64,000 nt of DNA, from positions 1 through 64,000 of the forward strand of contig CAWCKJ010000004.1 of NCBI GenBank assembly GCA_963796105.1, written 5' to 3'. The position numbers were made by a program, and so were the translations under genes. Below the pieces are notes generated by a model, which saw only the letters and a list, made by a program, of their open reading frames with translations, was not told where the DNA came from and did not search any database. Origin of the DNA: a candidate division FCPU426 bacterium. Lineage in GTDB: Bacteria > Oederibacteriota > Muellerivitia > Muellerivitales > Muellerivitaceae. This document shows positions 26,560-47,753 of the stretch, piece after piece; position 1 is the first letter of the stretch; every line of letters starts with the position of its first letter.

Positions 26560-26670
26560 TGTCTTTTGTCCCCGCCGGTTGAAAAGTGTGACGGTGGGCG
26601 GTCCAAAAGTGTGACACCCCCCGCCTTCCACGAGCCTTACGGTTCATGGTCGTTGGTTTGTCTTTAGTCT

Positions 26671-27447
26671 TTACCCTTCCTTCTTGTCTTTGTGCCTTAG
26701 CCGTTTTTTCGATTCTGTTAATCTATAACTTTGGCCGTTGGCCTCCAGAATATGCACCCGATGGGTCAAACGGTCAATAAGAGCCCCCGTCATCCTCTCA
26801 GAACCCATGATTTCCACCCAGTTTTCGAAGGGCAGGTTGGTCGTTACCAGCAGGCTGGTCCGCTCGTAGGCCTTGCTGACAACCTCGAAGAGCAACTCGG
26901 CCCCCGCCTTGGTGAAAGGCACGTAACCCAGTTCATCCAGGACGATCAGATGGAGCCTGGCTAGCTGACGGTGGAACTTGGCCAATTGTTTCTCCTCCCG
27001 GCGCTCCAGAAGCTCCGTCACTAGGCCGGTGACGGAGAAGAACTTTACCGCTCGGCCCTGGCAACAGGCCTGGAAGGCTAGGGCCGAGGCCAGATGGGTT
27101 TTACCCGTTCCGGAGTTGCCGATCAGCAGGATGTTTTCTTTTTTGTCCATGTACTCGCCCCGCATGAGTTCCCGGATTAATTCCTGGTTGATCGAGGGCT
27201 GGGCCTTGAAATCAAATGTGTCCAAAGTCTTGAGCACGGGAAAACCGGCATCCCGGATGCGCCTCTCCTTGGCCCGGCGCTCCCGATCCAGAAGCTCTAA
27301 CTCGGCCAGCTTGAGAAGGTACTGGGGATAGTCGCTGCGCTCAGTGCGGCAGAGCTGGGCCATCTTGTCGTACTCGCGCTGCATCGTGGGCAGTTTGAGT
27401 TTTTTGAGATGATGTTCCAGTAAGAGGGTCTTTTTTGATTCGCTCAT
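26671..27447 (-). CDS. istB: IstB ATPase
   Basis: GNSGTGKT, LDELGY, TTNLPF, DRLTH. Confidence 0.95.
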   Translation of the reverse strand: MSESKKTLLLEHHLKKLKLPTMQREYDKMAQLCRTERSDYPQYLLKLAELELLDRERRAKERRIRDAGFPVLKTLDTFDFKAQPSINQELIRELMRGEYMDKKENILLIGNSGTGKTHLASALAFQACCQGRAVKFFSVTGLVTELLERREEKQLAKFHRQLARLHLIVLDELGYVPFTKAGAELLFEVVSKAYERTSLLVTTNLPFENWVEIMGSERMTGALIDRLTHRVHILEANGQSYRLTESKKRLRHKDKKEG

Positions 27448-28943
27448 GCTTCACCTCCCACGGGCATCAGTTCGCGGTAGGCCGAAAGATCCGTCCGGGC
27501 CACCTGAACATGACGCAAGTGCTCACGACCGGCAAGGCTGAAGGTGGTTAGCCTGAAATCTTCCCTGGAGTAGAGAAGTTGAGCGACAGCGTCTCGGGTA
27601 TAGATCTCCATCCCCACGGCCTTCTTCACTGCCCGGTGGAGCCTGCCCATGGAATGTTTTTCCAAAAGCCTCATCGTCTTGATGAATTCCCGTGTTCCCT
27701 CGCCGTGGAGCTTTTCCTTGGATTTCATACGGCGGTGCAGAAGGGTGAAACTTTCCGGAAGATTCCAGTCTTCCAGGGGTCTGGCATGATCAAATGCTCC
27801 CGGTTTTCCCTCCAAGATCGCCAAATAATGCACTGGATTGAAGGATATGCCTTCCTTGCACCAAAGGCGATCATGCTTCGCAATACGTTTGTCCCTGTAG
27901 AAAACATCCACCCGGTCGATGTATCCCTTCACCACTACAGGATGGTGTGCCCACTCCGAAGGCACAGAATAGTCGTTGGTGTCGAAACGCACCAGGGACG
28001 AGGACGTTGCCGTTGTGGACTGCTTCAGACAGGCGTCAAAAGATGTGGCCGGCAAAGGCCGGAATTTGGCCTTATCCTCGTCAAGAAGCTGTTTTTTGGG
28101 GAGGAACTTGCCGCGCAATTTTCGTTCGAGATCCTCGCGGCATTTCACTTTCAATTGTTCGTTTAGTTCTTCTAGGGTTCCCACTTGCGGCACTGGCACC
28201 ATGAAATTTAGCCGGACATATTTCACCCCGCCTTCCACGACACCTTTTTCATTTCCACGGCGTATCGTGCAAAAGTGGTGATCAAAGAGATAGTGGCTTT
28301 CCAACTGCTGAAAACTCCGTGCCAACACCCGTTTATGCACCCCGATAATTTTCGTCACGAGGGTTTTGGCGTTGTCGTAACTGATCCGCCAGGGCACTCC
28401 ACCAAAGTATTCAAAAGCCCGGATGTGGCCTTCCCACACAAACTCCGTACTCTCTCGCTCAAACATCTGTACGAAAAAGGCATCCGAATAGGGCAAGGCC
28501 ATTACAAAAAACGGACGTTTGACCAACACACCGTTGAGCTTCACCAAGGCGTGCCCAAAATCCACCTGCGCCTCGCCGGGTCGGTGGATCAAAGGTACGA
28601 ACACCTCGCTATTTCTCTTTTTAATCCCCCGGACCGCTCTTTTTACCTGGGTATAACAGCCGGTGTATCCATCTTCGGCTTTCAGGCGTTCAAAAATGCG
28701 CTTAGCGCTGTGGCGCTGTTTTTTGTGGACGTGCTTGTCGTCCTCCAGGATTTGCTTGATCCGACCCAGGAAAGGCCCTACCTTCGGTTGGGGCCTCTCT
28801 TGACTCATTTGGTAACCTGGAGGCTCACTATTGGCGAGTATTTTCTTGAGGGTTTCCCAGTGAATGCCTTCTTCTGCCATCACCTGGCGCTTGGGAACGC
28901 CCTCCACCAGGATTTTCTTGCGGATTTTCGTCCATTTGTCCAT
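27444..28943 (-). CDS. istA: IstA transposase
   Basis: QVDFG, FGGVP..YDN, EKGVVE, YSVP. Confidence 0.93.
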   Translation of the reverse strand: MDKWTKIRKKILVEGVPKRQVMAEEGIHWETLKKILANSEPPGYQMSQERPQPKVGPFLGRIKQILEDDKHVHKKQRHSAKRIFERLKAEDGYTGCYTQVKRAVRGIKKRNSEVFVPLIHRPGEAQVDFGHALVKLNGVLVKRPFFVMALPYSDAFFVQMFERESTEFVWEGHIRAFEYFGGVPWRISYDNAKTLVTKIIGVHKRVLARSFQQLESHYLFDHHFCTIRRGNEKGVVEGGVKYVRLNFMVPVPQVGTLEELNEQLKVKCREDLERKLRGKFLPKKQLLDEDKAKFRPLPATSFDACLKQSTTATSSSLVRFDTNDYSVPSEWAHHPVVVKGYIDRVDVFYRDKRIAKHDRLWCKEGISFNPVHYLAILEGKPGAFDHARPLEDWNLPESFTLLHRRMKSKEKLHGEGTREFIKTMRLLEKHSMGRLHRAVKKAVGMEIYTRDAVAQLLYSREDFRLTTFSLAGREHLRHVQVARTDLSAYRELMPVGGEA

Positions 28944-29079
28944 GTCTTTGTACACTCCTTTTCCTTCCGGTTTCTGTAGTTCCATTTTCTGGAACCACAT
29001 CATCCCGGAAAATCGGGGAGCGTCACACTTTTCGACCGCCTTTTTTGCCCTCTAGACCGTCACACTTTTGGAACGGCGT

Positions 29080-29511
29080 TTACACGTCGAGTTTTGCCTG
29101 GTCGTCTAATTTCCTAGCACAAAATCGAAAAGGTATATCATCTGAAACTGATAGCCGCTCTAAGAAACCATATATTTTCAAATGCAGGCCCCCCCACCTA
29201 TTGGCACCCCCTAGGCTATGCGAATAAAGTCGAACCCGGGTGACACCCGATTGGGTTTCGCAATACATCAAATCTAAATCCTTACCTCCCAAAATATTGA
29301 TGGGTTTATCCAAAATGAAGATCGGTTCTTTCCAAGTTTGTTTTACCCGCCTTTCCTCGCCTTGTTCCAACACGTAAGAAACCGTCCCTGATAGCGTAAT
29401 ATTTGTCTTTGTTGCATAGGTTTTATTTTTTGCGAGCGCGGATTGGGCAAGGACATTCACGGTTAATACCCAAGCGGAAATAATCAATAATTTTTTCATT
29501 AGCAGATTCAT
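29080..29511 (-). CDS. Secreted hypothetical protein, probably 3'-truncated by IS21
   Basis: Signal peptide; the stop codon comes from the IS21 terminus. Confidence 0.6.
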   Translation of the reverse strand: MNLLMKKLLIISAWVLTVNVLAQSALAKNKTYATKTNITLSGTVSYVLEQGEERRVKQTWKEPIFILDKPINILGGKDLDLMYCETQSGVTRVRLYSHSLGGANRWGGLHLKIYGFLERLSVSDDIPFRFCARKLDDQAKLDV

Positions 29512-29548: not shown

Positions 29549-29576
29549 TGTCTACGATGGGTCCCCGGCGTGAACG
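29549..29576. repeat. 28-bp palindromic site A
   Basis: TGTCTACGATG-GGTCCC-CGGCGTGAACG. Confidence 0.7.
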
Positions 29577-29616
29577 ATCTAATCGATCAGCTATTACTGT
29601 CCCAGGAATATACCCC

Positions 29617-30273
29617 TCAAAATTGAGGGCGGAGGGCTGCCTTGGCCGCCTTCAATAATTCATCCGGATCAACCCGAACTTTGATGTCCGGGTTGTAATA
29701 TACGAAATGAATGATACCCTTTTGATCTGCCACATAAGCCGCCGGAACCGGCAGTTGATGGAGAGTATTGCCGGTGGCCGAATCCAGATCCACGCCGAAT
29801 TGTTTCATCTTGGAAAGAATTTCGGGACTCACCCGGTAAGCCAGTCCAAATTTCCCTGTCATTTCCATCGAGCTGTCCGAGAGCAGGGTATAGTTGAGGT
29901 GGTGTTTATCGAGGCTTTCTTTGAGCTTTTCGGGCTTATCAGGGCTGATGGCCAGAACCTGATAACCTAATTCCACGAGTTTTGGTTCGATTTTGACCAG
30001 CTGCCCCATCTGCAGGTTGCAATAGGGGCACCAGCCCCCCCGGTAAAAAATAAGAACTGTTGGTTTTTGGGTGATAAGCTTTTTAAATTCCACCTTCTTG
30101 CCAATGAGCGTTGTAAGCATGCCGTCCGGCACGGAATCCCCCATTTTAAGGGGGTGTACATCTTCAGCTTTGTCCGCCACGGAATGGTTCGTTGATCCTG
30201 CCATGAGATTCCCCCTTGAGAAAAACATAAAAAGGCAAAGCGCGCTAATAAATAAAACCGATTCTCCTTTCAT
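29617..30273 (-). CDS. Peroxiredoxin-like (AhpC/TSA) protein
   Basis: FYRGGWCPYCN, LAISPD, LPVPAAYV. Confidence 0.88.
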   Translation of the reverse strand: MKGESVLFISALCLFMFFSRGNLMAGSTNHSVADKAEDVHPLKMGDSVPDGMLTTLIGKKVEFKKLITQKPTVLIFYRGGWCPYCNLQMGQLVKIEPKLVELGYQVLAISPDKPEKLKESLDKHHLNYTLLSDSSMEMTGKFGLAYRVSPEILSKMKQFGVDLDSATGNTLHQLPVPAAYVADQKGIIHFVYYNPDIKVRVDPDELLKAAKAALRPQF

Positions 30274-30328
30274 TCCGATACCTTTCCCTATTCCTTTAGT
30301 TATTTTTTTTAAACCTGGAAGCGCGGCC

Positions 30329-32059
30329 TCATCCAAAGGTGAAGGCATAAACGGCGGTGCCCTTGTCGTCGAATTTGACGCGAAGACGGTGGGAACCAGG
30401 CTTTCCTTTCAAATCCACCAGGTAATACAGCCTTTGGGTATCCAGGAGCACCTTCCCGTCCCGCACATCCCCCCCGGCCCCGTCGTCAATTGCCTTTCCA
30501 TCCAGGGTCAGGGAAACCTGGCCGCCCTTTTGACCGGGCCCAATCACGAGATAAACCTTATCCGCCGTAAATTGGATTTCCAAAGCCGAGCCCTTTTTCG
30601 GTTTCGCGGCCTCGCCCGTGAGCGTCCAAATGCCCTCATAGGCGATATGGTGCAAGGGCAGGGACGCGGGAAGCGAATATTTTCTCTTGCCTAAAATCGG
30701 GCGTTCCTTGGAGGCGAACCGCTCCAGCCGGTCCAAGCCCAGGTAGGATTCGGGTGTTTGGTCGTAATCGGATTCCTGGGCCTCCATGGCGGATGCCGCG
30801 GACGCGGCGGGATGCCCGGCCTCGGCGAGAAGCTCACCTATGGCGGCGTCCATCTCGTCGTAATGACCTTCCCCGAAATGTTCCAGGCGGATATGCCCCT
30901 TGGCGTCGATAAGGTACTCGGCGGGCCAGCTGTCGTTGTGGAAAGCGTTCCAAGTTTGATAGCCGTTGTCCTGGGCCACGGGATAAAGGATGCTGAACTG
31001 CGCCAGGGCTTTTTGGACGTTGCTGGTTTCCTTTTCAAACGCGAACTCAGGCGTATGGACGCCCACCAGGACGAAATGGTCGGGACCGTATTTTTGGTAC
31101 CAGGCTTTCGCATAGGGCAGGGTCCTCAGGCAGTTGATACAGCTGTAGGTCCAAAAATCCACGAGGACGACCTTGCCCCGGAGTTTTTCCAGGGTGAGGG
31201 GCCCGCCGTTCAGCCAGGCGGAGATGCCAGTGAATTCCGGGGCCGGGCCCAGGTCCGCGAGCTTTCCTTGCGAGGCATCCACGGCTTTGGTGGGCGCCCT
31301 GCCCCTGAGGGCGTCCAACTGGCCGCTAACGAGCTTGTTGTTTTCCACGCCGTTGATGAGGTTGCCGTAGCTGGGGAAAGCCTCCAGTACCTTGAGTTGG
31401 ATCGTCTTGTCGTAATTGGTGTAAATCAAAACCGCCACGCAAATCATGACCAGGCCGAAAACCTGCTGGATGCGGCCCGTGAACTTCGTCACCCGGCGCA
31501 TCCTGCCGAACAGCCAGGAGCCGCCGAGGGAGACCAGGAACAGGGGGATCCCCAGGCCCAGAACGTAGGCCAGGGTCACGAGAAGCACTTGGAGGTTGAC
31601 CGCCTGGGTGGCGGCCAGGGTGGCGATTGTGGCCAGGATCGGGCCCGCGCAAGGCGCCCAGACCAAGCCGATTGAGAAACCCGCCACGTAACCCGCGCCG
31701 AAACCCGTTCCTTCCCCTTTTCCCTGGAAGCGGCTTTGAAGCGGCTGGAGGACGCGGCTGATCCAGGCCTCGAATTTCGCGCCAAGGGAGGGAAACAAAA
31801 GGAAGATGCCCAAGAGCGAGATGATCCCGACTGCCACAAGGCGGAACACATTGGGGCTGATATGAAGGAAGCTCTCCAGGTAGGAGATGAACAAGGTAAA
31901 GAGAGTGAAGCTGGTCATCACCCCCAGCGTCAGGCCGAAGGGTTTGCGCTTGCCCCCCGTGGAGGAGACGGATAGAACCAGCGGCAAGAGGGGCCAGATG
32001 CAAGGGGCCAGGATGGTGGCGAAACCCGCCAGGAAACTGAAGAAAAGAAGAAAAATCAT
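30329..32059 (-). CDS. dipZ: DipZ (CcdA/DsbD TM domain + thioredoxin-like + C-terminal domain)
   Basis: APCIWP, WAPCAGP, FWTYSCINC, HTPEF, AFTFG. Confidence 0.9.
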   Translation of the reverse strand: MIFLLFFSFLAGFATILAPCIWPLLPLVLSVSSTGGKRKPFGLTLGVMTSFTLFTLFISYLESFLHISPNVFRLVAVGIISLLGIFLLFPSLGAKFEAWISRVLQPLQSRFQGKGEGTGFGAGYVAGFSIGLVWAPCAGPILATIATLAATQAVNLQVLLVTLAYVLGLGIPLFLVSLGGSWLFGRMRRVTKFTGRIQQVFGLVMICVAVLIYTNYDKTIQLKVLEAFPSYGNLINGVENNKLVSGQLDALRGRAPTKAVDASQGKLADLGPAPEFTGISAWLNGGPLTLEKLRGKVVLVDFWTYSCINCLRTLPYAKAWYQKYGPDHFVLVGVHTPEFAFEKETSNVQKALAQFSILYPVAQDNGYQTWNAFHNDSWPAEYLIDAKGHIRLEHFGEGHYDEMDAAIGELLAEAGHPAASAASAMEAQESDYDQTPESYLGLDRLERFASKERPILGKRKYSLPASLPLHHIAYEGIWTLTGEAAKPKKGSALEIQFTADKVYLVIGPGQKGGQVSLTLDGKAIDDGAGGDVRDGKVLLDTQRLYYLVDLKGKPGSHRLRVKFDDKGTAVYAFTFG

Positions 32060-32237
32060 CTCGCCCCCCCCTTCATGGCGCGTATTGGAACTAATTAATT
32101 CATCTACCTATGACGTTATTTGCGGAATAAATTTAAAGTAAGAGGGCAAAAAAAATCGGGTGAATTTTGAAAAATTCACCCGATCATAAGAAATTTCCGG
32201 CGCAAAAACTGAAACTACTACTGACTAGGTGTCGAAA

Positions 32238-32480
32238 TTACTTTGCGGCAGGAGCTGCAGCATCCGGGGTGGCAGCAGCGGCATCCTTCTTCATCATCTT
32301 CTTAGTCATTTTCTTCTTCGTCATCTTCTTCTTACTCATTTTCTTCTTCATCATCATCTTATCAGACTTCATAGCAGCACCCGGGGTAGCAGCAGCGGGA
32401 GCAGCAGCATCATCAGCCAATGCCACACCGACTGCACCCAAGAACAACATGGTCATCAAAACAGCGAATAAACGCTTCAT
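32238..32480 (-). CDS. Small secreted Met/Lys-rich repeat protein
   Basis: Signal peptide; repeated KKKMT units; GGAGG RBS. Confidence 0.8.
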   Translation of the reverse strand: MKRLFAVLMTMLFLGAVGVALADDAAAPAAATPGAAMKSDKMMMKKKMSKKKMTKKKMTKKMMKKDAAAATPDAAAPAAK

Positions 32481-32639
32481 CTACAACCTCCTTAAAATTA
32501 AGGAACAGTGAACTATCCCCTGTTCCCGTTAAAAAATAAAATTTCCCGTCAATCCCGATAACGAGGAAGTCAATATAATAAGGTTTGAATTTTCTTTATA
32601 CAACTTATTTCCCGATTGTTGAAAATGTCCAGCATGTAA

Positions 32640-32670
32640 AGAAAAAAGCCCCACAAACGCAGGGCTTTTT
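32640..32670 (-). terminator. Intrinsic terminator
   Basis: AAAAAGCCC-loop-GGGCTTTTT. Confidence 0.6.
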
Positions 32671-32919
32671 AAAAGAGCCTGGAGCCGTTATCGATACACC
32701 CCGGGGAGGGTGTTTCCCAGGATGATAGCCCTCTGGCTACTTTCATGTTAAAGGTTATTCTTATCATTAAATGGAGTCAAGTTAAGAAAGTGTGACAAGC
32801 CGGGTTCAGTACCAGAATGGTGGCGAAACCCGCCAAGAAACTGAAGAAAAGAAGAAAAATCATACCACCCCCCTTTAAGAATATACCCGGATAACTTACG
32901 ATTCTAAACGGGGTAATCA

Positions 32920-33751
32920 TTGAGCCTGAACTCAAATAGTTGGGGGAATAAGCCGGAAAAAATCCTTCATTGCACCTTCTTATGCCTCGCTTTGTCCGTG
33001 GTTTCTTGCCGGGTCCAAATCACCTACCCGCACGCCCCTGGAACCCTTTTTATCCGCCAGCAAATCTGCGACCTCAATGATTTCAAGTCGGGCTTCTTCA
33101 AGCGGGAAAACGACCTTAGGGGACATGGCTTCATGGCCTACAGTTTCCACCGGGACCCAATTGACCCCAAGACCTATATCCTGTCCTTTAAATGCGGGGA
33201 CTTGGAAAAGGCAGTAGAATTCATCCGTTCCTCCAATTTCTATTTCTCCTGCGTGGGTGCCGGTTTGGGCCAGCCGCTGTTCTGGGCCGGAACGGACGTG
33301 GTGGGCCTTCCTTACCCGAAACTCACCCCCTTGGCGGGCGGTATCGCCTTGGCCCGCTACGAGGTACGGGATTACGATACCTGGAAACGAGGGTGGGATG
33401 TCGAATACGGCGGTAATAGGGGCCGCCCCAAAACAGAGGGTGGACCCCAAACCCTCAGCCTGCACCGGCTTGAGGGCAGGCCCGAGGCCGTGATCGTGGT
33501 TTACGAAGTGACAGATATCCCCCAAGCGCGGGCCTTTTTGGACTCCGAAGCCGAAAAAAACGCCAATAGATACCCACGGGCAAGCCCGTGGTACTAAAAT
33601 CAAAATTCAAGCTTCGCTTGCCGTGCTTTCAGCACGGTGGCCTTTCACCCACGGGCAAGCCCGTGGAACTCAAAGCGCCGGATTAGAAACCACTGGGGTC
33701 ACCCGCCAGGCCCTCTGGTTTGGAACAAATTTGGAAGAAGGAATTTTTTAA
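32920..33751 (+). pseudogene. Putative lipoprotein with two internally similar domains, interrupted by a small palindromic insertion
   Basis: Lipobox-like VVSC. Removing about 33565-33682 restores EKNA-LETTGVTRQALWFGTNLEEGIF*, which mirrors the first domain's LFWAGTD. Confidence 0.6.
33565..33682. mobile_element. ~118-bp IS200/IS605-type non-autonomous element
   Basis: Two copies of the CCCACGGGCAAGCCCGTGG hairpin near the ends plus an internal hairpin; no ORF. Confidence 0.65.
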
Positions 33752-33831
33752 ACTTTCTAAATTTTATTAAAAGTTACATCTCTTGGTTATTAATCATTTA
33801 ACGAGTAGGTTGCATAGGGTCCTACATCATC

Positions 33832-33859
33832 TGTCCACGTCGGGTCCCCGTAAGGAACA
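33832..33859. repeat. 28-bp palindromic site B
   Basis: TGTCCACGTCG-GGTCCC-CGTAAGGAACA. Confidence 0.8.
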
Positions 33860-33891
33860 ACCCCCATTCTCTTAATTCCGGTTAACCCCGG

Positions 33892-34695
33892 TTAAGGGCG
33901 CGTGATACGCTTTAATTCAAAGACGGCTTTGGCGGGCCGGGTGTAGTAGTTCCCGTCCCCATTCGTGTCCCAAGTCGTTTCGATGCTGTCCTCTTCCATT
34001 TCCAGGGAATTGCCATCGCCCGTCAGGGTGTAGGAGAAGGTATGAGCAAAGGTTTGGTTCCCCATCCTCTGGATGACTTCGGGGGGCAAAAGATTAGAAA
34101 CCGAAGTCATGGGGTAGTAATCGGTATGGGCGATTTTATTGCCATCGCCCGTAAAGGTAAAAGTGGTGGGGGGCATTTGGGCCCATTGCACTCGATAGCC
34201 GCCTTCCGCACGGGTAACCGTCATTTTCTGGTTCAGCAGGCCCATAGCATCAGGCGGCGGGGATTGAATACAGAGCCACTCGCCCGCAACGCTTTTGGCG
34301 GCCTCCGCAGCCACGCTTTTTTGGAGCATGTTCATTTCCCAATTGAAGGACTGGATGCTATGGATAATAGAATCTCTTTGGGCTTGAAGGTTTTGTTTTT
34401 GAACTTCGGTTTGTTGGTCTTCGGTTTCGGTGTTAAATGAGATGATTTGAGAATTGAATTGTTTAATTTTTTCCAACAGCGCAGACCTTTCCTGATTGAA
34501 CCTGGCGCTTTCATCCGCCGGTATCCCCTTCGGGGGCGGCTGGAGATCCGGAAGGCCCCCCCCGGGGCTATTCCCCCCCGCTTTATCCGTGGCCGCCTGC
34601 GCCATGCCGCTATTTTGGGCAAAGCCAAAGGAAGCGAATCCCCCCCAAACCACCAACAAAAAAACAAAACTCAAAAGATAAAATGAACGCGCCAT
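33892..34695 (-). CDS. Secreted hypothetical protein (cassette C-B)
   Basis: Signal peptide, coiled coil, beta-barrel-like C-terminus; GGAG RBS. Confidence 0.7.
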   Translation of the reverse strand: MARSFYLLSFVFLLVVWGGFASFGFAQNSGMAQAATDKAGGNSPGGGLPDLQPPPKGIPADESARFNQERSALLEKIKQFNSQIISFNTETEDQQTEVQKQNLQAQRDSIIHSIQSFNWEMNMLQKSVAAEAAKSVAGEWLCIQSPPPDAMGLLNQKMTVTRAEGGYRVQWAQMPPTTFTFTGDGNKIAHTDYYPMTSVSNLLPPEVIQRMGNQTFAHTFSYTLTGDGNSLEMEEDSIETTWDTNGDGNYYTRPAKAVFELKRITRP

Positions 34696-34935
34696 AAACG
34701 CTCCAACAAAAGAATCTTTGAATTTAAAACAGATTACCCGTTTTTCCCATGAACCCCATGGATTCAGGGCCAAACCCCATTCCAACCCGTTCAACCGGTA
34801 GAACTAAAGTCGGCACGATCAGATTCACCGTTAAGATAAATATCAGTTAATTGTCCTCAAAATTTTTAAATTAGTCTCTGACATGAATCATAAATTGAAT
34901 TCTGTGGTTAAATGCCGTTTATAGCCTAAAATAAT

Positions 34936-35675
34936 CGTCCACGAGTAGAGTAAAGCACTGGCGCGCCTCCGGTTGCCCGGAACGTTTCCAGCGCCTTCTC
35001 GTCAAACCGTACGTGCGGTTTTCCCGCATACGGCTTTCCCTGAACGTTCGCCGAAAGCTCTTCGCCTGTTCCTTTCGGTTCAGGCTTACTCTTTCCCGCT
35101 AGTCTTGAAGCTGGTTCCAGGGCTTGGTCCTTCAGGAGTTCCTAGGCTTTCGCCAATCTCCCGCCCGTCCCCTTTATAAGACGCTGTTCAGGCCAAGCCC
35201 CTTCGCTCCCCCAAGGTTTTGCTGTCCTTGGAATCCACGCTAGTATGGGCTTGTCCGACCCCCATAGGATCTCCCTGTCATTTCGCCGCTTAGACTTATA
35301 GGCAGGTACCTGGTACTTCCCTATGGGTCTCCCAAGTTCCGTTGTTCTCCGTCTGGACGTGTCGCCCCTGTTACCCCGGAGGAGTCTCATGCGTATTTCT
35401 GGCTCCCGCATGGGATACTGGTTTCCCCAAGACCCGAAAGGGTCACCCTCCTCAATCTCGACGTTACGAGGTTACACCTAGGTTCACACGTGTTACGACC
35501 CGTCCTTTCGCATCGGGCGCTTTACCGCCCTTTGTCGAGCCGCTTGAACCTGGCAGGTTACCCCGCCCGATTCGGCTCCCTGCTACCAGACTGCCAAATT
35601 TTGTCTGGGTCGGCACTTTTCAGCCGACTGGATGAACAACAGCTTTCTTGGCGCGCCGGGTCCCCGTCGAGGACA
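34936..35675. repeat. 28-bp site C, split by intron copy 1 (34936-34944 and 35657-35675)
   Basis: Rejoined: CGTCCACGA|CG-GGTCCC-CGTCGAGGACA. Confidence 0.85.
34945..35656 (-). ncRNA. ORF-less group II intron, copy 1 (712 nt)
   Basis: 5' GCGCG (variant of GUGYG), domain V AAGCCGTATGCGGGAAAACCGCACGTACGGTT, domain VI, 3' end CTCTAC; no RT ORF. Confidence 0.92.
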
Positions 35676-35739
35676 ACTTTATTCGACCTGCTCAAACCAA
35701 ATCAACTTTGAGTGATATGGTTCCAAGCTCTGAAGGGGC

Positions 35740-36171
35740 TTAGCCGGGAGGGATCGGATCTTTCCCGGCCAGGTAAATGACGCAAGTTTCGTAGTCTTGG
35801 ATGGGCTGGATTTGCACGGTCATGTTGTAAACTTCCCCGCCCACCTTGAGTTTCATCTTTCCGCTCTGCGGCTCCGTTGTTTTCGTGAGATCCATGAAGG
35901 CCATTTTCTTGAACCTGGAGATCAGGTGGCGGTAGCGGAACCAGGGCAACTCGGTGGTCCCGGGAACGAATTCCCCTTGGACCCGCCAGCGCAGCCGCAT
36001 CTTGGATTCGGCCCAGGGTTCCACCACGGGCCGGATTTGGATTTCGCTCGCCCCGGCCAGGATGGCTTCATGAAGAAGGGCAAAACTAAGCTCCCCCATC
36101 GAAGGAAAGGGCTTCTCATTCTCTTCGGGGCTTTCTCCTTCCTGGCTGGCATCCCCATGAGGGTCGTTCAT
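35740..36171 (-). CDS. Stand-alone GspE/PilB N-terminal (N2D)-like domain protein
   Basis: GASEIQIRP, RWRVQG, ISRFKKMAFMDL..PQSG; no Walker motifs. Confidence 0.7.
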   Translation of the reverse strand: MNDPHGDASQEGESPEENEKPFPSMGELSFALLHEAILAGASEIQIRPVVEPWAESKMRLRWRVQGEFVPGTTELPWFRYRHLISRFKKMAFMDLTKTTEPQSGKMKLKVGGEVYNMTVQIQPIQDYETCVIYLAGKDPIPPG

Positions 36172-36214
36172 GGCCGCTTATTTCTCCTCATTTTCCGGGT
36201 AATTCAAGGCTGCC

Positions 36215-36445
36215 CTATCCCGCGAACTGGCTCCGGTAAACAGCCTTGATGTGCGCCAATCTCTCTTCAAGCTGTTGGGTTTTCTCGGCCAGCCCCAACT
36301 CACGCGCCAGGCCGATGGCATCTCTCAAATAATCCTTGCAATCGCTGTATTCGGTCATCGGGTGGCTGGAATCGTACATTTGGTCATAGGCTTCCTCGGC
36401 CTTTTTCTCCAAAAACTCCAATTGCTCTTGCGGGGTCGGTGGCAT
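36215..36445 (-). CDS. Small helical hypothetical protein
   Basis: 76 aa; AEEAYDQMYD...HIKAVYRSQF. Confidence 0.65.
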   Translation of the reverse strand: MPPTPQEQLEFLEKKAEEAYDQMYDSSHPMTEYSDCKDYLRDAIGLARELGLAEKTQQLEERLAHIKAVYRSQFAG

Positions 36446-36538
36446 GCCTAAAATCCTGGTTTTTATTCTTCCGTGAATGAAAGCGGGGTTCATCCATTCC
36501 GGTTGGGCTTATCATAGTGTAATAAACCTCGTTTTCAC

Positions 36539-36566
36539 TGTCCAATGCGGGTCCCCGTCGTGGACA
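36539..36566. repeat. 28-bp palindromic site D
   Basis: TGTCCAATGCG-GGTCCC-CGTCGTGGACA. Confidence 0.9.
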
Positions 36567-36576
36567 AGGACATCTC

Positions 36577-36960
36577 TTAAAAGAACTGTGGAGACCCTAA
36601 TAATCCTAATACGACATGTAGGATCAGGTAAGTCATTATGAACAGCACGGCGAACTTATACTTTTTCTGTCGTATGAACCGGAATAGAAAATGGAGTAAA
36701 AAACTGTAATACAAAAAAAATAAAACCCAAATAATTTCGGCTAAAATAAATGCCACATAAGAGTTAAAGCCTCCCTCGCTATATACAAAGTTGCTTATCC
36801 AGCGAGACAGCAACATGAAAGGTCCGAGTATAAAAATACCGATCCAGTGAAGAAATCCCTGTATTCTCAGCTGATCAATGAAATAGGCAATAGCACCTAA
36901 TGAAAAAGCGACGAGAAAATTAAAATACTTAAATTCTTTAAGCGTTTTTAAGATCTTCAA
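36577..36960 (-). CDS. Four-TM membrane protein (AT-rich)
   Basis: GGAGG RBS before TTG; hydrophobic. Confidence 0.7.
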   Translation of the reverse strand: MKILKTLKEFKYFNFLVAFSLGAIAYFIDQLRIQGFLHWIGIFILGPFMLLSRWISNFVYSEGGFNSYVAFILAEIIWVLFFLYYSFLLHFLFRFIRQKKYKFAVLFIMTYLILHVVLGLLGSPQFF

Positions 36961-36997
36961 ATTGCCTCCCTATCGCGGACAACTTCTGGCAGAACGG

Positions 36998-38494
36998 TCA
37001 ATTGCCTGGTTTCTGTAAATCTTCCTGCAATTCCTTCGCTTTCCGGGCGGCATATTCATTTCCTTGGTTGGCCGCCAGTTGAAACCAGTAGAGAGCTTGC
37101 TTGGTAACATCATTGACTTCGGACTCATAGTAGAGACTACCGGCCATTGCCACGCTTTCAATCTCATATAGATCCCCTAATTTAACCTTGGCTTCGACGC
37201 TTCCCAAATTCGCGGCTTGGGTATACCACTCGATGGCTTTTTTCTCATCATTGCCCTTTTGAGGATCGTTGTAGTAATCCCCATTTTGAATGTCCTGTTC
37301 CACGGCGGTGGAAGGCGATGTGTTGGTTCCATTGGAGGTATCCCCGCTGGAATTTTCCCCCGAGGACGCCGTTACATTGGCCAAATCCGACAATTTGTTC
37401 GTTGCCATTTGGTCACCGTTCGCCGAGGCCAATTGGTACCAATATTTCGCCTTTCCGAGGTCCTTACCGACCCCTTTCCCATCTGCATAACATAGGCCCA
37501 TCATCAATTGGGCAAAACTGTTCTTCGGGTCCTGATCGGCCGCTTTTTGGAACCAAGGAATAGCCTCGGAAAACCTATTTTTTCCGTAAAAATGGTAACC
37601 CAACTGTGCTTCGTGATAAGCATCCCCCGCTTTACGCACCAAACTGACAGCCTTCGCCTCATCCGGGTTCACACCCCATCCATTCAGATAAAACATTCCC
37701 AAATTCCCGGTCGCCATCACATGCCCCTGGTCGGCGGCTTTTTGAAGCCACTTCACGGCCTCCACGTTGTCCTCCTTGGCCCCCTTGCCATCGGAATAAG
37801 CCAAGCCAAGTGAGTTCTCTCCGTCCGCATTGCCTAGGTCCGCCGATCGGTTGAAATATTGAAAAGCCTCATCATCCTTGCCCGCCTTTTGGGCTTCCGT
37901 GCCCTTTTGGAAAAAGGCTGCGCCATCCTCCACTGTCGTTGGACTACTGCTAGTTGGGGGAGCATTCGAAGTGGGCTCGGACGCGGGCTGGTTTGAACCG
38001 TTCGCGGAACTTTCGGGAGGAAAGGGGGTTGTGCCTGAATTGATCTTTGCCAAAGCCTCATCGGCCTTTTTATATCCTTGGGCCGATGCTTTTTGAAGCC
38101 AATCCTGGCCTTCTTTCTTACCCGAAGCGATCTCGGCGTCCCATTTTTCAATTTGCTTTTGATCTTTTTGCGTCCATTCCCAAGCCGTCATGGCCATTGC
38201 CGCGTCATAAAGGTAAAGCCCATAGCGATACTGGCCCTCGGCGTTCCCCTTTTCCGCGGCAACGCTATACCATTTACCCTCGTCTTCATATTTTTTGATC
38301 TTGTTCGCGGCCTTTGCCCTCTTGAGGGCCACCTTCGCCGAAACGGAGTGATCGATCTTAACTCGGGAGGGCGTCACGGTCGCCGTGGGAAGTTCGCTGT
38401 CCGCAGGCACATACACATTCTGGGCCAACACGGAGCCTCCAAAGGCCGCAATACCAAGGATGGCCCCTAAAAATATTCCAGTTCTTATTTTCAT
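36998..38494 (-). CDS. Secreted Sel1-repeat protein
   Basis: Multiple SLR repeats (AVKWLQKAADQG, AKYWYQLASANG); signal peptide. Confidence 0.9.
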   Translation of the reverse strand: MKIRTGIFLGAILGIAAFGGSVLAQNVYVPADSELPTATVTPSRVKIDHSVSAKVALKRAKAANKIKKYEDEGKWYSVAAEKGNAEGQYRYGLYLYDAAMAMTAWEWTQKDQKQIEKWDAEIASGKKEGQDWLQKASAQGYKKADEALAKINSGTTPFPPESSANGSNQPASEPTSNAPPTSSSPTTVEDGAAFFQKGTEAQKAGKDDEAFQYFNRSADLGNADGENSLGLAYSDGKGAKEDNVEAVKWLQKAADQGHVMATGNLGMFYLNGWGVNPDEAKAVSLVRKAGDAYHEAQLGYHFYGKNRFSEAIPWFQKAADQDPKNSFAQLMMGLCYADGKGVGKDLGKAKYWYQLASANGDQMATNKLSDLANVTASSGENSSGDTSNGTNTSPSTAVEQDIQNGDYYNDPQKGNDEKKAIEWYTQAANLGSVEAKVKLGDLYEIESVAMAGSLYYESEVNDVTKQALYWFQLAANQGNEYAARKAKELQEDLQKPGN

Positions 38495-38565
38495 ATTTCC
38501 CTCCCTGGTTTTATTTTAATCTCGAGATCACTAGTTCAACCGAATATTTAGAGGCCGAAGTTTTT

Positions 38566-38593
38566 TGTCCACCAGGGGTCCCCGTCGTGGACA
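38566..38593. repeat. 28-bp palindromic site E
   Basis: TGTCCACCAGG-GGTCCC-CGTCGTGGACA. Confidence 0.9.
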
Positions 38594-38601
38594 AGGTTGA
38601 G

Positions 38602-38829
38602 CTATTGTCTCTTCCGATACCCAACACCGCTTTTGGGTTTCCCTGTGAGAGCATAACGGAACAAATAAATTCCTACACCAATTGAAACAGCGGCTGCAAA
38701 ATAACCATAAATAAGTAAAGAATGTTCTATTTCGCAATAAATGCTATATACAGCAAATGCAAAACACACCAAACTCATTCCAAAAGCTTCCCACTTGTTA
38801 AATTTATAAGAAAATTCTAATTTTTTCAT
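38602..38829 (-). CDS. Small two-TM membrane protein (cassette F-E)
   Basis: GGAGAGG RBS; 75 aa; fills nearly the whole space between sites F and E. Confidence 0.7.
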   Translation of the reverse strand: MKKLEFSYKFNKWEAFGMSLVCFAFAVYSIYCEIEHSLLIYGYFAAAVSIGVGIYLFRYALTGKPKSGVGYRKRQ

Positions 38830-38843
38830 ACCTCTCCAAAGGC

Positions 38844-39583
38844 TGTCCACGAGTAGAGTAAAGCACTGGCGCGCCTCCGGTTGCCCGGAACGTTTCCAGC
38901 GCCTTCTCGTCAAACCGTACGTGCGGTTTTCCCGCATACGGCTTTCCCTGAACGTTCGCCGAAAGCTCTTCGCCTGTTCCTTTCGGTTCAGGCTTACTCT
39001 TTCCCGCTAGTCTTGAAGCTGGTTCCAGGGCTTGGTCCTTCAGGAGTTCCTAGGCTTTCGCCAATCTCCCGCCCGTCCCCTTTATAAGACGCTGTTCAGG
39101 CCAAGCCCCTTCGCTCCCCCAAGGTTTTGCTGTCCTTGGAATCCACGCTAGTATGGGCTTGTCCGACCCCCATAGGATCTCCCTGTCATTTCGCCGCTTA
39201 GACTTATAGGCAGGTACCTGGTACTTCCCTATGGGTCTCCCAAGTTCCGTTGTTCTCCGTCTGGACGTGTCGCCCCTGTTACCCCGGAGGAGTCTCATGC
39301 GTATTTCTGGCTCCCGCATGGGATACTGGTTTCCCCAAGACCCGAAAGGGTCACCCTCCTCAATCTCGACGTTACGAGGTTACACCTAGGTTCACACGTG
39401 TTACGACCCGTCCTTTCGCATCGGGCGCTTTACCGCCCTTTGTCGAGCCGCTTGAACCTGGCAGGTTACCCCGCCCGATTCGGCTCCCTGCTACCAGACT
39501 GCCAAATTTTGTCTGGGTCGGCACTTTTCAGCCGACTGGATGAACAACAGCTTTCTTGGCGCGCCGGGTCCCCATCGTGGACA
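38844..39583. repeat. 28-bp site F, split by intron copy 2 (38844-38852 and 39565-39583)
   Basis: Rejoined: TGTCCACGA|CG-GGTCCC-CATCGTGGACA. Confidence 0.88.
38853..39564 (-). ncRNA. ORF-less group II intron, copy 2 (712 nt)
   Basis: Same length as copy 1 and apparently identical. Confidence 0.92.
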
Positions 39584-40245: not shown

Positions 40246-40639
40246 TAAGCAACCTCCTTGTTTTGTTCTGCATCTACGGGTTTCAGAAGAAAATCGACGG
40301 CCTTTTGGGCCTGGGAAACGGCGGTCATTAGGGCCTTTGAATCGTCTTTGATTGCTTCGATCCAATTGGCGATATAAGAGGCGTGGTTGGTCTTGTAGGG
40401 GATGCCGACATGGGCGCAAAGGATTGCGGCCCCAAACTCGGCCACAAGCTCCTCGGCGGCATATTCCGGGGAACCGAAAAGGGAGCCTTTAACCCGGTCG
40501 AGCCTGGCCTTTCCTCCGGTCCAGTGGGTGTTATGCCGATATCGGCATAAGACGCAAAATGCCGAATCCCGGATTATGCCGAATGGACCGACGTTTCCCT
40601 TGAATTGATAACCCCGGCCCATTCGATGATTCGGCATAA

Positions 40640-41638
40640 TCAAAGCGCCTCCAAGAACGCGAGTAACTTGTCGTCAGGACGATACCGCCCCGGTTTACAG
40701 GCGATGGCGGCTACACTAGACAAGGCTTTTTCTTTGAGTCGGAGATCCGCATGCATGTAGACCTGAGTGGTTTCAACGGATTCATGCCCAAGCCAGAGAG
40801 CGATTACCGATTGGTCAACCCCGTGTTGCAACAGTTCCATGGCTGTGCTGTGCCGCAGGACGTGAGGACTGACCCGCTTGCCGACAAGCGAGCTACAGTA
40901 CGCTGACGCTGATAGCGTGTGTTTTTGGACGATGTACTCAAATGCGTCACGACTCATCCGCTCTCCACGTATAGTCGGGAAAAGAGGACTGTTTTCAGCG
41001 CCTTGATGTTCTTTCAACCATGCTTCGAGTAGCTTTGCGGTTTCCTTTCGAAGTGGGGTGCACCGTTGTTTACGCCCTTTGCCTTCACACCGAATGTGAG
41101 CACCCTCGCCAAGCACGACATCTTGGGGACGAAGATTGATCAATTCGGATGAGCGAAGCCCCGTTTGTAATACAACCAGCAGGATCAACAGGTCACGACG
41201 GCCAACCCAGGTTTTCCGATCAGGTGCTTTGAGAAGCGCTTCAATCTCCGGCCGATCCAGAAAATCCACGGTTCGCCGGACATATCTTTTGCTCGGCATG
41301 GCCAGGATTTTTTGACAATGGAGCATATAGGCCGGCTCGCTCATTGCCACATAACGGAAGAAGGAGCGAATAGCTGTCAAACGAACATTCCTGCTACGCG
41401 CCGTATTCTTCCGGGCCGTTTCGACGTGATGGAGAAAATCACCCACCAGCCCCACATCCAAGTCTTCAATCCGAAGTTTCGTTGGGTCCTTGCCACGCTT
41501 TTCACTGGCGAAGCGCAGGAACAAGCGGAAGGTGTCGCGGTATCCGGCAATCGTATTTGGGCTCGCCTCCATCTGGTTGCGCAGACGGTCGGTAAAAAAG
41601 TGTTGGAGCATTGCCGGGAAGGTTGATGGGTTCATCAT
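40640..41638 (-). CDS. Tyrosine recombinase RitC-like
   Basis: GLRSSE, KGRK, HVLRHS, LGH, Y. Confidence 0.92.
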   Translation of the reverse strand: MMNPSTFPAMLQHFFTDRLRNQMEASPNTIAGYRDTFRLFLRFASEKRGKDPTKLRIEDLDVGLVGDFLHHVETARKNTARSRNVRLTAIRSFFRYVAMSEPAYMLHCQKILAMPSKRYVRRTVDFLDRPEIEALLKAPDRKTWVGRRDLLILLVVLQTGLRSSELINLRPQDVVLGEGAHIRCEGKGRKQRCTPLRKETAKLLEAWLKEHQGAENSPLFPTIRGERMSRDAFEYIVQKHTLSASAYCSSLVGKRVSPHVLRHSTAMELLQHGVDQSVIALWLGHESVETTQVYMHADLRLKEKALSSVAAIACKPGRYRPDDKLLAFLEAL

Positions 41639-42579
41639 CGCACCTCCACAGCCGAGTTACCGGTTACCCGCCGGGAGGCAAGTTCCAGCAATTCGGGAAC
41701 GGCCTCGATATACCAGTAGGTGTGCTCCGGACCGGAGTGACCCAGATATGTCGTCAGTTTGATCATTTCCCGGGTGACATCCTTGCCCGTGCGATACCAA
41801 CCCACCATCGTGCGTGCGGCGAAGGTGTGCCGGAGATCGTGGAGGCGCGGGCCTCGTCCATGTTTGCAGAACCGTTGGGGAGTCCGTAACCCAATTCGCT
41901 GGCAAACAACCGCGAAGTTGTAGCGCGCGCTGCAATCGTCCGGACGGTTTCCTTCCTCCGTGGCAAAGAAGGATTGCGGAACGAAGCCCACAAGCTGGTC
42001 GCGTTGGATAACGTAGGCCTTCAGGTGTTTGGAAACGTCCTTGGTGATGGGTACCGAGCGCGTTTTCCCACCCTTAGCACGCTGGATGGTCAAGACACCG
42101 CTGTCCAAATCAACATCATCGTTGTCCAGTCCAAGCGCTTCACTAACCCTGAGACCAGTTATTGCGATCAACCCAAAGAGGGTTGAAAAGGTCAACGCCC
42201 GTATGCCGCTCATGGAGGGCAGGCTGGACGCGGTTTCGACAATCCTTTTGATCTCTTCGTCGCTGTAGATGTGGGGCTTTGGACGGCGAAATCGATATGG
42301 AATAAGCCCCTTTGGTGGTACTTCATGCGCTGGATCAAGGCCATGAAGCCATTGCGCAAAAAGCCGGATCATTGTTAGGCGGGCGGCCCAAGTCGGACGG
42401 TGGGCCTTGCCAAAATCCTTTTGCCACTTCAGGAACAACTCGGTGGATATATGGTTAGCGCCTTGTTGTTCGGCGAAGGCAATAAACCTGCGAAGCACCC
42501 TGGCTGTCGTAGTGAGGTCAAAGCCCAGGCCGCGACGGATCATCAAATAACGGTCGAGTTCTTGGGATAGGTTGCTCAT
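41635..42579 (-). CDS. Tyrosine recombinase RitB-like
   Basis: GLRVSE, HDLRHT, LGH, YWY. Confidence 0.92.
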   Translation of the reverse strand: MSNLSQELDRYLMIRRGLGFDLTTTARVLRRFIAFAEQQGANHISTELFLKWQKDFGKAHRPTWAARLTMIRLFAQWLHGLDPAHEVPPKGLIPYRFRRPKPHIYSDEEIKRIVETASSLPSMSGIRALTFSTLFGLIAITGLRVSEALGLDNDDVDLDSGVLTIQRAKGGKTRSVPITKDVSKHLKAYVIQRDQLVGFVPQSFFATEEGNRPDDCSARYNFAVVCQRIGLRTPQRFCKHGRGPRLHDLRHTFAARTMVGWYRTGKDVTREMIKLTTYLGHSGPEHTYWYIEAVPELLELASRRVTGNSAVEVR

Positions 42580-43826: not shown

Positions 43827-44657
43827 CTCGTTGCTCCTTTTGACTGAATTTCCGACTAAGGAGCAAAAATAGCACAGACAAATCCGCCATCTGGTGTAAG
43901 TCAACCTAACTTCGATGGCCATTTCTACACCTCAAGCAGAGACCAATTCGCGGGTTTTATGCCGAATGAAATTTTCATTTTCTGATGAAAAACGGGCTGA
44001 CTGGAATCGGTTCGGCATAATCCGGGATTCGGCATTTTGCGTCAACTCGTGGAAAAGAGTTCCGTAATAGCCTTCCGTTGTTTTGAAAGCTTCCTTGAAG
44101 GGGAGGGTGATTCGGTCGGTCGCCGGGCTGTAAAAAGCTTTGTCCTTAACCTGGTCGAAAAGTATGGCGGCTCCCGAGTTCTTTATGATTTGGTCGGCTT
44201 CATCGACGTTCTTAACCTGGTTCCCGGTGAATTTCTCCTTCAAGTGGTCAAGTCCCTCGATCTGGTCAAGGTTGAAAACGTAGTGAAGGCGGATAAAGGG
44301 AAATGTTTTGGATAATTTTTTTCCCTGCTCGTCCCTTTCCTCCGTTGTCTTGCTCTTGATCTCAAAATAAATAATCTCGGTTCCCTTTTCCCCTTTCTTT
44401 ACGGTCCCGCCTAATGTCTTGGCTTGAAGAAAAGTCATCCATGCGGGGGAAGAGTAGTTTTCCTGTTGGCGCTTGTATCCCAAAAGAATCAAGTTCATCC
44501 CCTGGTAAATGTGGGAGGAAGAACCATTGACGGAAGGAACGAAAAACCAAGGCTTGTCCCATGGCATGACGCCCTTTTCCATGTCGGCGGTAATTTTTTC
44601 GGCTACTTCTTCGACTAAGTTTGAAAGCTTTTCTTTTGTTTCCATTGGTTTCCCCTT

Positions 44658-44810: not shown

Positions 44811-45229
44811 TCGGGAACAGCCCTCCGGGGGCCGCCCTTCACAAATAGGCCGAGGAACGAGGCCGGTGAGGGCGGACACCGAGGGCAAAGGGGTTTATGG
44901 ACAAACGGAGGGCGCAAGCCCGGAGTGCCGGCCAGCAGGTCTTTCTCGTGAAGGAAAAGTTTGCGCGGTAGGGCTAGGCGAAGCCGACGCCCGTCAGCGA
45001 AACCGGAAGACGAGAAGGGCAATCTTGGCCCGACGGCCAGGAGGGCCGCCCTGGGAGGATGGAGGCGGCGTTAGCCGCTTTGACTCACGGGAAAGTTCCC
45101 TGGATCGGTCATCGTTGGGGTTGCCAGGGGGTTCTCCCCTTGGCTAGGGATGGGAAATGGGAAGGGGCTTTTCATCCCTTCCCCTGGGGGGTCCGGGGGA
45201 CGGCTCGAACGAGCCCGCCGCCCGGGCTA
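44811..45229. repeat. ~420-bp structured non-coding leader, copy 2
   Basis: Near-identical to 1489-1909. Confidence 0.9.
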
Positions 45230-47717: not shown

Positions 47718-47753
47718 AAAATGCCGGGGTTATAATTTCCCCGGCATTTTTTT
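47718..47753 (+). terminator. Intrinsic terminator
   Basis: AAAATGCCGGGG-loop-CCCCGGCATTTTTTT. Confidence 0.75.

Follow-up and report, generated by a model that had tools for sequence, protein, structure and literature searches.

The 64,000-nt window analysed here (G000:C4:1-64000, where G000 is the source genome, an uncultured candidate division FCPU426 bacterium, and other G numbers denote compared genomes) contains, between positions 29549 and 39583, a tandem array of gene cassettes separated by directly repeated copies of a single 28–30-bp site. Comparison with related genomes makes it close to certain that such modules are mobile cassettes, and they are very probably excised and inserted at the site by a shortened large serine recombinase, a reading drawn from sequence. 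If a short serine recombinase does move them, the arrays represent an undescribed bacterial way of collecting genes. More broadly, it is likely that the arrays form a second, independently evolved cassette system of integron scale. This would be built on a tRNA-targeting large serine integrase without its zinc-ribbon/coiled-coil directionality module, on a tRNA-Asn half-site turned into a symmetric, universal 28–30-bp site, and on conjugative elements seeding up to about 100 joints per genome across the family, with at least three group II intron lineages targeting the site. New cassettes may be born in it by recombination of a site with the GGAGG ribosome-binding site directly ahead of an ordinary gene.

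The repeated site and its cassettes

The site consists of two arms of 13–14 bp around an asymmetric TC (28–30 bp in all). Among 516 copies, positions 12 and 17 pair across the centre in 91% and positions 13 and 16 in 83%, against less than 1% for positions 14 and 15, which read TC in 486. The bases flanking this TC are a pyrimidine on the left and a purine on the right, each in more than 90% of sites. The earlier note had proposed 11-bp arms around a 6-bp core; the inner pairing replaces this by 13+2+13. Conservation peaks at the centre and at a GGAC lying 9–12 bases from it, while positions 12–13 vary in 7–15% of sites. Pairing between the arms is not above that of arms shuffled among sites, and there is no excess of covariation, hence it is the sequence that is conserved and not the folding of a hairpin.

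The position of the exchange point was approached by asking which neighbour each arm follows, using the same 516 sites, from which 21 sites abutting the second intron family described below had been removed beforehand. Left-arm bases 1–10 track the left neighbour, with mismatches in 8/240 for left-shared pairs vs 60/260 for right-shared pairs, and bases 11–13 do likewise (1/72 vs 10/78, p=0.01). Since the arms track different neighbours, the exchange point should be central, at about positions 12–18. Across all sites, an A/T tract lies 4–8 bases outside the left arm and a weaker one at 14–18, a spacing of about 10 bp that may reflect bending or an accessory protein. No terminators are called at the sites. 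A role as a −35 promoter element, prompted by three matches, was rejected (23/480 vs 29/479 on the control side, with a shuffle mean of 50).

The matrix scan suggested earlier, run on G000 at a threshold of 17 bits, gave 52 sites in 21 clusters, 11 of them singletons; at that score 54 sites are counted in G000 against 0 and 2 in two shuffled genomes. Orientation agrees with that of the cluster for 40 of the 41 sites in multi-site clusters, and neighbouring genes run against the written direction of the site on its right side in 45/52 and on its left in 43/52. The site pattern occurs in 27 of the 30 other genomes of the family, at up to about 100 copies per genome, and in the single genome of the sister family, while none of the 29 genomes from 13 other families of the phylum carries it; the reversed pattern, used as a control, gave no matches. 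Viral contigs held 0 exact matches to the pattern. One perfect site is present at G099 C30:53099, in a 4.8-Mb assembly labelled Alphaproteobacteria, which could be a mis-binned contig or a transfer outside the family.

Site-dense loci, mainly from G001, G002, G018, G019, G022, G023 and G026, together with other fetched loci, provided 84 arrays in which 339 of 346 adjacent site pairs are directly repeated. The random orientation of a repetitive extragenic palindromic (REP) element, named in the earlier note as the picture that would contradict a cassette array, is not seen within arrays. After 25 of 396 modules with an intron motif were set aside, 371 remained, with genes taken from a simple caller of our own. 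Their median length is 808 bp, and 208 hold one gene and 93 hold two. Gene orientation relative to the site is mostly the same (508 of 566 module genes), with a median distance to the site of 21 bp from the stop and 75 bp from the start. An orientation set by replication direction was considered and rejected, as the arrays of G000 run both with and against the local gene-strand bias. The 566 module proteins fall into 422 families. In a sample of 80 cassette proteins out of 132, 39 have no Pfam match at 1e-6, and the remainder include PIN, YafQ, VapB and FitA toxin–antitoxin parts, GNATs, transporters and sensors.

Mobility is apparent from modules that recur in unrelated surroundings. Whole-length identity reaches 90% or more in 16 pairs of modules. 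Nine of these pairs have unrelated sequence on either side, one lacks a flank, and the remaining six, which are larger duplications, share one flank or both. Pairs with unrelated flanks link G001 and G026 (388 bp, 100%), G002 and G022 (800 bp, 99.6%), G002 and G026 (1,619 bp, 96.4%) and G018 and G023 (3,050 bp, 96.3%), each between genera, and one 1,217-bp module is found at 100% in two arrays of G002. Overall, recurring modules with unrelated neighbours span 388–3,050 bp at 92–100% identity. Cassettes of G001, a member of the same genus, recur in other arrays of G000. In base-level alignments, identity reaches the site and then ends. Since whole modules turn up among unrelated neighbours and cease to be identical at the sites, they are, as judged from sequence, close to certain to be mobile cassettes. 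The earlier proposal of an integron-like cassette system with its own site is borne out by the direct repeats, the co-oriented genes and the shared modules. A low-coverage DNA run, uninformative on this point, held short identical pieces and no joint at a site.

The birth of a cassette may also have left a trace. Among 597 places matching the core and right arm, those with CC at positions 12–13 read GGAGG on the gene strand. An open reading frame (ORF) of at least 60 codons starts 4–12 bases further on at 9/40 CC cores vs 29/495 others (p=0.001), in a test that was devised after seeing the decayed site of the window (itself one case) and whose count is inflated by related sequences. This fits the capture of ordinary genes at their own ribosome-binding sites.

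A candidate short serine recombinase

The two-base centre of the site led to a search for serine recombinases with PF00239. A serine recombinase of 275–281 amino acids (aa) is encoded in G001, G002, G018, G025 and G026, pointing into the array and ending 8, 34, 36, 14 and 14 bp, respectively, from a co-oriented site; the site after the G018 gene is split by an intron. A metagenome copy ends 9 bp before a site, and a second metagenome contig stops inside the left arm. The five genome copies are the only intact ones in 99 genomes of the phylum. A DNA search based on the 3' end of the gene returned 14 matches, spread over 9 of the 31 family genomes and followed by a full site in 11, by a left half-site in two and by neither in one (the weakest, 29 nt); many copies of the short gene are 5'-truncated remnants.

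Nineteen database proteins of 275–283 aa, 71–100% identical, form a tight group above a score gap. The catalytic motifs YVRVSS and DRLYR are invariant in all 19, and the zinc ribbon PF13408 is absent from them. PF00239 and PF07508 match five of five short proteins, which consist of the Resolvase and Recombinase domains only; translation stops 0–10 residues past the end of the alignment, some 240 residues short of where it stops in relatives. In a quick tree with Shimodaira–Hasegawa-like approximate likelihood ratio test (SH-aLRT) support only and no bootstrap, the 19 proteins form one clade (99) nested (98) among tRNA-targeting full-length enzymes, some from the same hosts. The short enzyme is 55–60% identical to a clade that inserts at tRNA 3' ends. 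Its sequence matches in the PDB are 3guv, 3bvp and 9dxd, its best Foldseek matches are the SPbeta, Bxb1 and phiC31 complexes, and NCBIfam CcrA/B matches are far below cut-off. Full-length relatives from the same lineage have the site in their locus in 0/5 cases.

The domain content of the short enzyme agrees with the site. According to one study of the LI integrase, its recombinase domain covers 13 bp, with major-groove contacts at 9–11, the zinc ribbon reads positions 16–24, and exchange is efficient solely in the parallel alignment of the central dinucleotide (PMC3783163). This footprint fits the 13-bp arm with GGAC 9–12 bp from the centre, and an enzyme reduced to the catalytic and recombinase domains would be expected to recognise about 13 bp on either side and not to discriminate between sites. 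Distinct attP and attB sites of 40–50 bp were not seen; there is a single symmetric site type, conserved over about 30 bp. A second report describes an LI integrase that, once its coiled coil was removed, became promiscuous and lost directionality along with some of its efficiency (PMC5499577).

The site also resembles the target of the full-length relatives. Of 66 loci of these enzymes (a set that includes two short-gene remnants), 36 end in the 3' end of a tRNA lying antisense, which is Asn in 12, Gln in 20 and another in 4. The tRNA-Asn end aligns in register with the TC and right arm of the site at 11/15 bases. In a search for copies of this end with positions 8–16 left free (51 zero-mismatch rows counted by hand, 22 being intact tRNA ends and one mixed), the non-gene copies in the family have TC at 14–15 in 26/28 and the two native bases to its left in 8/28. 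Since nearly all these tRNA-type junctions start at TC, the crossover of this enzyme family is probably there. Furthermore, at G000 C2:259657 a cassette left arm is joined at TC to a tRNA-Asn fragment. On this evidence, the cassette site may be a tRNA-Asn half-site that was made symmetric. Several non-gene copies of the last 21 or so bases of tRNA-Asn, each beginning at TC, are present per genome (C2:259657, C3:106674, C4:260483 and C4:675174 in G000, and many places in relatives), a few of them inside or beside cassette arrays in the same orientation. They are possibly sites of an older system run by a full-length enzyme.

Intact genes for the short enzyme adjoin ardC or conjugation-type genes in G018, G025 and G026. 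In G001, some 1.4 kb separate the gene from a stretch that matches G000 C14:3892-14821 at 99.9% identity but in G000 does not carry the gene. The G002 gene sits among chromosomal genes. A plasmid collection contained only distant relatives, the best rows at about 30% identity. All that was found in G000 is a 47-bp tail of the gene before the site at C6:187413 (83%, E 4e-6), with no remnant in the 64-kb window by tblastn or blastn. With no intact enzyme in G000, the array in the window is an orphan.

Where the enzyme is present it lies on the A side, and cassettes shared at 100% identity are found both beside its gene and in mid-array. No gradient of decay runs along arrays, the first and last sites of 33 closed arrays scoring 38.2 and 40.1 bits (p=0.44). 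Growth from the F end, as put forward in the earlier note, is therefore not upheld.

From the biochemistry of serine integrases, a mechanism can be proposed. A recombinase dimer would bind each site, two sites would synapse, and, after cleavage of all four strands at the central TC, rotation of the subunits would exchange them. From a direct repeat, a circle with one site would be released, and this cassette circle could enter any other site. As the non-palindromic TC permits one alignment only, the shared orientation of nearly all sites and genes would be explained. An enzyme lacking zinc ribbon and coiled coil would make no distinction between sites, and its reaction could run in both directions. 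Two things would keep arrays in place: the enzyme, which arrives on conjugative-type elements, is missing most of the time, and the loss of toxin–antitoxin cassettes carries a penalty. Two joints in the window would additionally be blocked by the insertion of a group II intron that base-pairs with the site.

The case that the short serine recombinase acts on the site is strong but circumstantial, and we rate it highly probable. Several points weigh against it. No recombination, circle or excision read was observed, and the related genomes compared are not independent. An intact enzyme is present in just 5 of the 31 family genomes, G000 not among them, and no intact copy occurs in the assemblies of such site-rich genomes as G006, G011, G022 and G023. 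The G025 gene has two more co-oriented sites 6–7 kb upstream, so that the gene occupies a site-bounded unit, is not always at the head and can be read as cargo. The structure model is poor (predicted local distance difference test 64, predicted template-modelling score 0.43), and the 78 site-less metagenome loci of full-length relatives come mostly from other taxa and make a weak control. Given the reported inefficiency of the LI mutant without coiled coil, activity of the natural enzyme is not assured. With regard to the exchange point, positions 12–13 alone give 0/48 vs 5/52 (p=0.057), or 0/44 vs 1/40 at the strictest threshold, and the right arm shows a weak signal in the expected direction (21/240 vs 15/260, p=0.23; 20/220 vs 8/200, p=0.049); co-segregation by itself fits a 2-bp and a 6-bp overlap alike.

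The second of these overlaps would suit a dif-like 11+6+11 site served by a tyrosine recombinase, either the Xer of the lineage or the integrase of an element, as in the pdif modules of Acinetobacter. The earlier note described the site as that of a tyrosine recombinase and named co-occurrence of such an enzyme as a check. Part of that expectation holds, since the distribution of a single Xer nearly equals that of the site. The XerD cut-off is passed by 20 of 61 genomes, all outside the two site-bearing families, whereas one divergent Xer is present in 29/30 family genomes and 1/1 of the sister family and in 0/29 others. The 28-bp length and the co-segregation bracket (about 11 to 19), which spans a 6-bp core, also accord with this reading. 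However, both families appear to have replaced XerC/XerD by this divergent Xer together with a dif-like site of its own, and Xer was rejected as the cassette enzyme. Its gene sits at the switch of gene-strand bias and skew that marks the terminus. Just upstream, by about 80–120 bp, is an AT-rich 11+6+11 palindrome unlike the cassette site in 8/8 genomes (G000 C3:368879-369946, and the same in G001, G002, G004, G022, G025, G026 and G031), while in 30 loci no cassette site lies within 1.5 kb of xer. In G004 the cassette sites are about 0.5 Mb from the terminus. In addition, four of the six supposed core bases pair across the centre, positions 12–13 vary as given above, and pdif modules are flanked by oppositely oriented sites (PMC12907356), as opposed to the direct repeats here. 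With a serine enzyme adjoining the 13+2+13 sites, a tyrosine recombinase is quite improbable.

Alternatively, full-length tRNA-targeting serine integrases, such as the 512-aa protein on G000 C6, could act in trans, the short gene being a passenger or a scar. Full-length relatives do occur in G000, G001, G002, G021 and G031, the tRNA-Asn end that they use resembles the site, and the short-gene copies are often truncated remnants. Yet the short form is a conserved clade of a single length, with invariant catalytic residues, and not an assortment of chance truncations. In contrast to tRNA-type junctions, which keep a longer arm, the symmetric cassette site stops at about 14 bp. Moreover, the full-length copy carried by G000 occupies tRNA-Gln(CTG), with an end that lacks the TCCCC core. 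We regard this alternative as unlikely. A repeat that does not recombine (REP-like, an operator, a terminator or part of a promoter), between whose copies modules move by homologous recombination or retro-elements, would agree with the 21 clusters and 11 singletons of G000 and with the attraction of group II introns. It is nonetheless very unlikely, as orientation within arrays is uniform, the identity of shared modules stops at the site without flanking homology, left and right arms travel with different neighbours and do not covary, and neither terminator calls nor the −35 idea lent it substance.

Relation to integrons and other systems

The textbook means by which bacteria stockpile and shuffle single-gene cassettes is the integron, and cassette-finding tools look for IntI and attC. 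Sites of the attC type are long imperfect palindromes that contain R and L boxes and are recognised when folded as single strands. The judgement that the sites of the window are not attC stands, given a sequence conserved over 28–30 bp, arms without covariation and central exchange. IntI (TIGR02249) was found in 0/61 genomes at E<=1e-40, a weak test, as the 14 control genomes gave no match either. Of the 36 Phage_integrase matches in G000, only a trio of recombinases described below lies at the head of the array in the window, and split tyrosine-integrase matches near two sites (G000 C4:440 kb and C13:64 kb) were identified as frameshifted integrases of elements and not IntI.

In common with integrons and with clusters of attC sites lacking integron-integrases (CALINs; PMC8618304), the arrays consist of tandem, co-oriented, mostly single-gene cassettes, carry toxin–antitoxin genes and many genes of no known function, and occur without an enzyme. 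Group II introns at the sites are a further likeness (PMC7923331). The differences lie in the enzyme, which belongs to the serine family with no IntI found; in the site, one conserved 28–30-bp sequence as opposed to a long attC defined by structure; and in the exchange, which is central and leaves a half-site at each cassette end, with arms that do not covary. Moreover, the recombinase gene lies in the direction toward which the cassette genes point, and a platform promoter at that end would not be expected to drive them, unlike in integrons.

The large serine recombinases of LI/A118, SPbeta (SprA), Bxb1, phiC31 and TP901-1 share with the short enzyme the catalytic and recombinase domains and a site with a central dinucleotide (PMC3783163, PMC5499577). 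The short enzyme is about 240 residues shorter, without zinc ribbon or coiled coil, and its putative site is symmetric and present in up to about 100 copies per genome, in contrast to one attP and one attB. It would move passenger cassettes, and not just its own element. Serial insertion at a regenerated site is known from the staphylococcal cassette chromosome (SCC) with its Ccr recombinases and from tandem islands of large serine recombinases. In all of these, large elements that encode full-length enzymes are stacked at a single locus, as opposed to cassettes of about 0.8 kb, many loci and a short enzyme here.

In Acinetobacter, 28-bp pdif sites likewise bound enzyme-less modules in linear multi-module chromosomal islands, the enzyme acting in trans (PMC12907356), but these sites alternate in orientation and resemble the host dif. 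Those described here are direct repeats, GC-rich and unrelated to the dif-like site of the lineage. Introns that target integrons (IIC-attC, and IIB; PMC7923331) likewise use the cassette site as an abundant non-coding target on the gene strand. The intron of the window differs in lying inside the arm of a non-attC site, with an exon-binding pairing that covaries with the target. All in all, the system works like an integron, differs from integrons in enzyme and site, and differs from pdif modules in enzyme, site and orientation. No account of a serine-recombinase cassette array was found in the full-text literature searched, subscription journals being mostly outside its coverage, and a passage of 10.1101/2025.10.07.681051 contains no description of such a system.

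If the proposed system is real, cassette arrays evolved at least twice and arrays of this kind are invisible to present searches. It would likewise provide a traceable path from an island integrase to a gene-capture platform, through the loss of one domain and the symmetrising of a tRNA half-site. How cassettes arise is an open question, for which capture at a ribosome-binding site offers a hypothesis that can be tested. In addition, DNA assembly could profit from a candidate natural serine recombinase about 280 residues long that would use a 28-bp site and probably need no directionality factor.

The array in the window, its introns and surroundings

All six sites of the window have one orientation and are intergenic, as the earlier note had reported. 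Sites A (29549..29576), B (33832..33859), D (36539..36566) and E (38566..38593), all written on the plus strand, are matched by the pattern with 0–3 mismatches, against a mean of 0.01 in 100 shuffles. Sites C and F become whole when an identical 712-nt insert after the ninth base of each is skipped. Their halves lie at 34936..34944 and 35657..35675 for C and at 38844..38852 and 39565..39583 for F; these split coordinates had been given correctly, although the introns between the halves were missed. Scores are 31 bits for A, whose right arm is decayed, 29 bits for B, whose right arm is variant, 45 bits for D and 42 bits for E, and, with the intron skipped, 40 bits for C and 48 bits for F. A decayed seventh site (36954..36981, plus strand) keeps its right arm and has lost the left; it scores 12 bits, reached by 0 of 30 shuffled windows. 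On the gene strand its centre is a Shine-Dalgarno-like GGAGG.

The modules from B to F carry unrelated minus-strand genes and module GC content ranges from 0.36 to 0.53, in agreement with the first description. Between B and C is the gene of a 267-aa putative secreted protein without a Pfam or NCBIfam match (33892..34695), its stop 32 bp from site B. In module C–D are a 76-aa ORF (36215-36445) and the gene of a 143-aa protein resembling the N-terminal part of GspE/PilB (35740-36171). Between D and E lie the genes of a 127-aa putative membrane protein (36577..36960), with a TTG start inside the decayed site, and of a 498-aa Sel1-repeat protein (36998..38494), whose stop is 16 bp from the decayed site. 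The gene of a 75-aa putative membrane protein (38602..38829) occupies module E–F, with a GC of 0.36. Two stops were noted earlier as falling 8–10 bp short of a site, and the distances are 10 bp at D, for the 127-aa protein, and 8 bp at E, for the 75-aa protein.

The cargo of module A–B (29617..33597) has mixed strands and comprises four ORFs. On the minus strand are an AhpC/TSA redoxin (29617-30204), a DsbD-TM/thioredoxin protein (30329-32059) and an 80-aa putative secreted protein (32238-32480). A 225-aa ORF without a family (32920-33597) is the sole plus-strand gene among the cassettes. The module is about 75% like a site-bounded module at G000 C7:121574-126136. It looks rearranged. A 62-bp duplicate of the start of the DsbD-like gene is present (32008-32069 vs 32812-32873), and a short GC-rich hairpin occurs in two copies at the end of the plus-strand ORF (33574-33591 and about 33646-33665). 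To the left of site A, a 143-aa minus-strand ORF (29080..29511), starting 37 bp from the site, is likely a further cassette whose outer site is gone, with an IS21 element abutting.

Both inserts are group II introns on the minus strand (34945..35656 in the left arm of C, and 38853..39564 at the same position of F). They match RF02005 with 70.6 bits and RF00029 with 47.8 bits, both above the gathering score, over domains I–IV and V–VI. The 712-nt element corresponds to a 1,930-nt intron whose ORF has been deleted; the long form is found twice in G002 at the same site position and encodes a 436-aa reverse transcriptase (RT)/maturase above the TIGR04416 cut-off. In the introns of the window, exon-binding site 1 (EBS1), CGGGUC, faces the last six exon bases GACCCG, and in both G002 copies UGGGUC faces GACCCA. 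G030 C132 holds an 80%-identical ORF-less relative in which EBS1 loop and target have both changed, in sequence a natural retargeting. The EBS1 region folded alone is no more stable than shuffles (z −0.19). The two copies in the window have different exon flanks and so inserted independently of each other, probably not long ago and with the aid of an RT acting in trans; no RT was found in G000, whose assembly is 96.8% complete. By breaking the left arm, the introns are likely to freeze those two joints, but as they lie on the transcribed strand, they could splice out.

A second intron family (RF02003) lands two bases past an intact site in 21 of 22 rows. Its members come with and without RT, at up to about 19 RT-bearing copies per genome, on the cassette-gene strand. 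The intron that splits the site beside the G018 enzyme is a third.

The array is bounded on its left by the IS21-family element (26597-29040) and on its other side by a region in which ardC, radC and lexA-like genes are found and which resembles a piece of a conjugative element. The ardC gene is interrupted by an element with three tyrosine recombinases and 33-bp perfect inverted repeats (40551-44043), which we take to be RIT-like. A radC-like gene is repeated directly (73%) together with adjacent non-coding stretches (97–98%) at 982-1909 and 44811-45871, which suggests two related pieces of mobile elements around the region. A DDE_Tnp_1_4 element, presumably of IS1380 type, is present in four copies or fragments (80-831, 11564-13235, 22760-24431 and about 47740-49400), and tandem 21-bp repeats are found at the right edge of the window (63799-63987).

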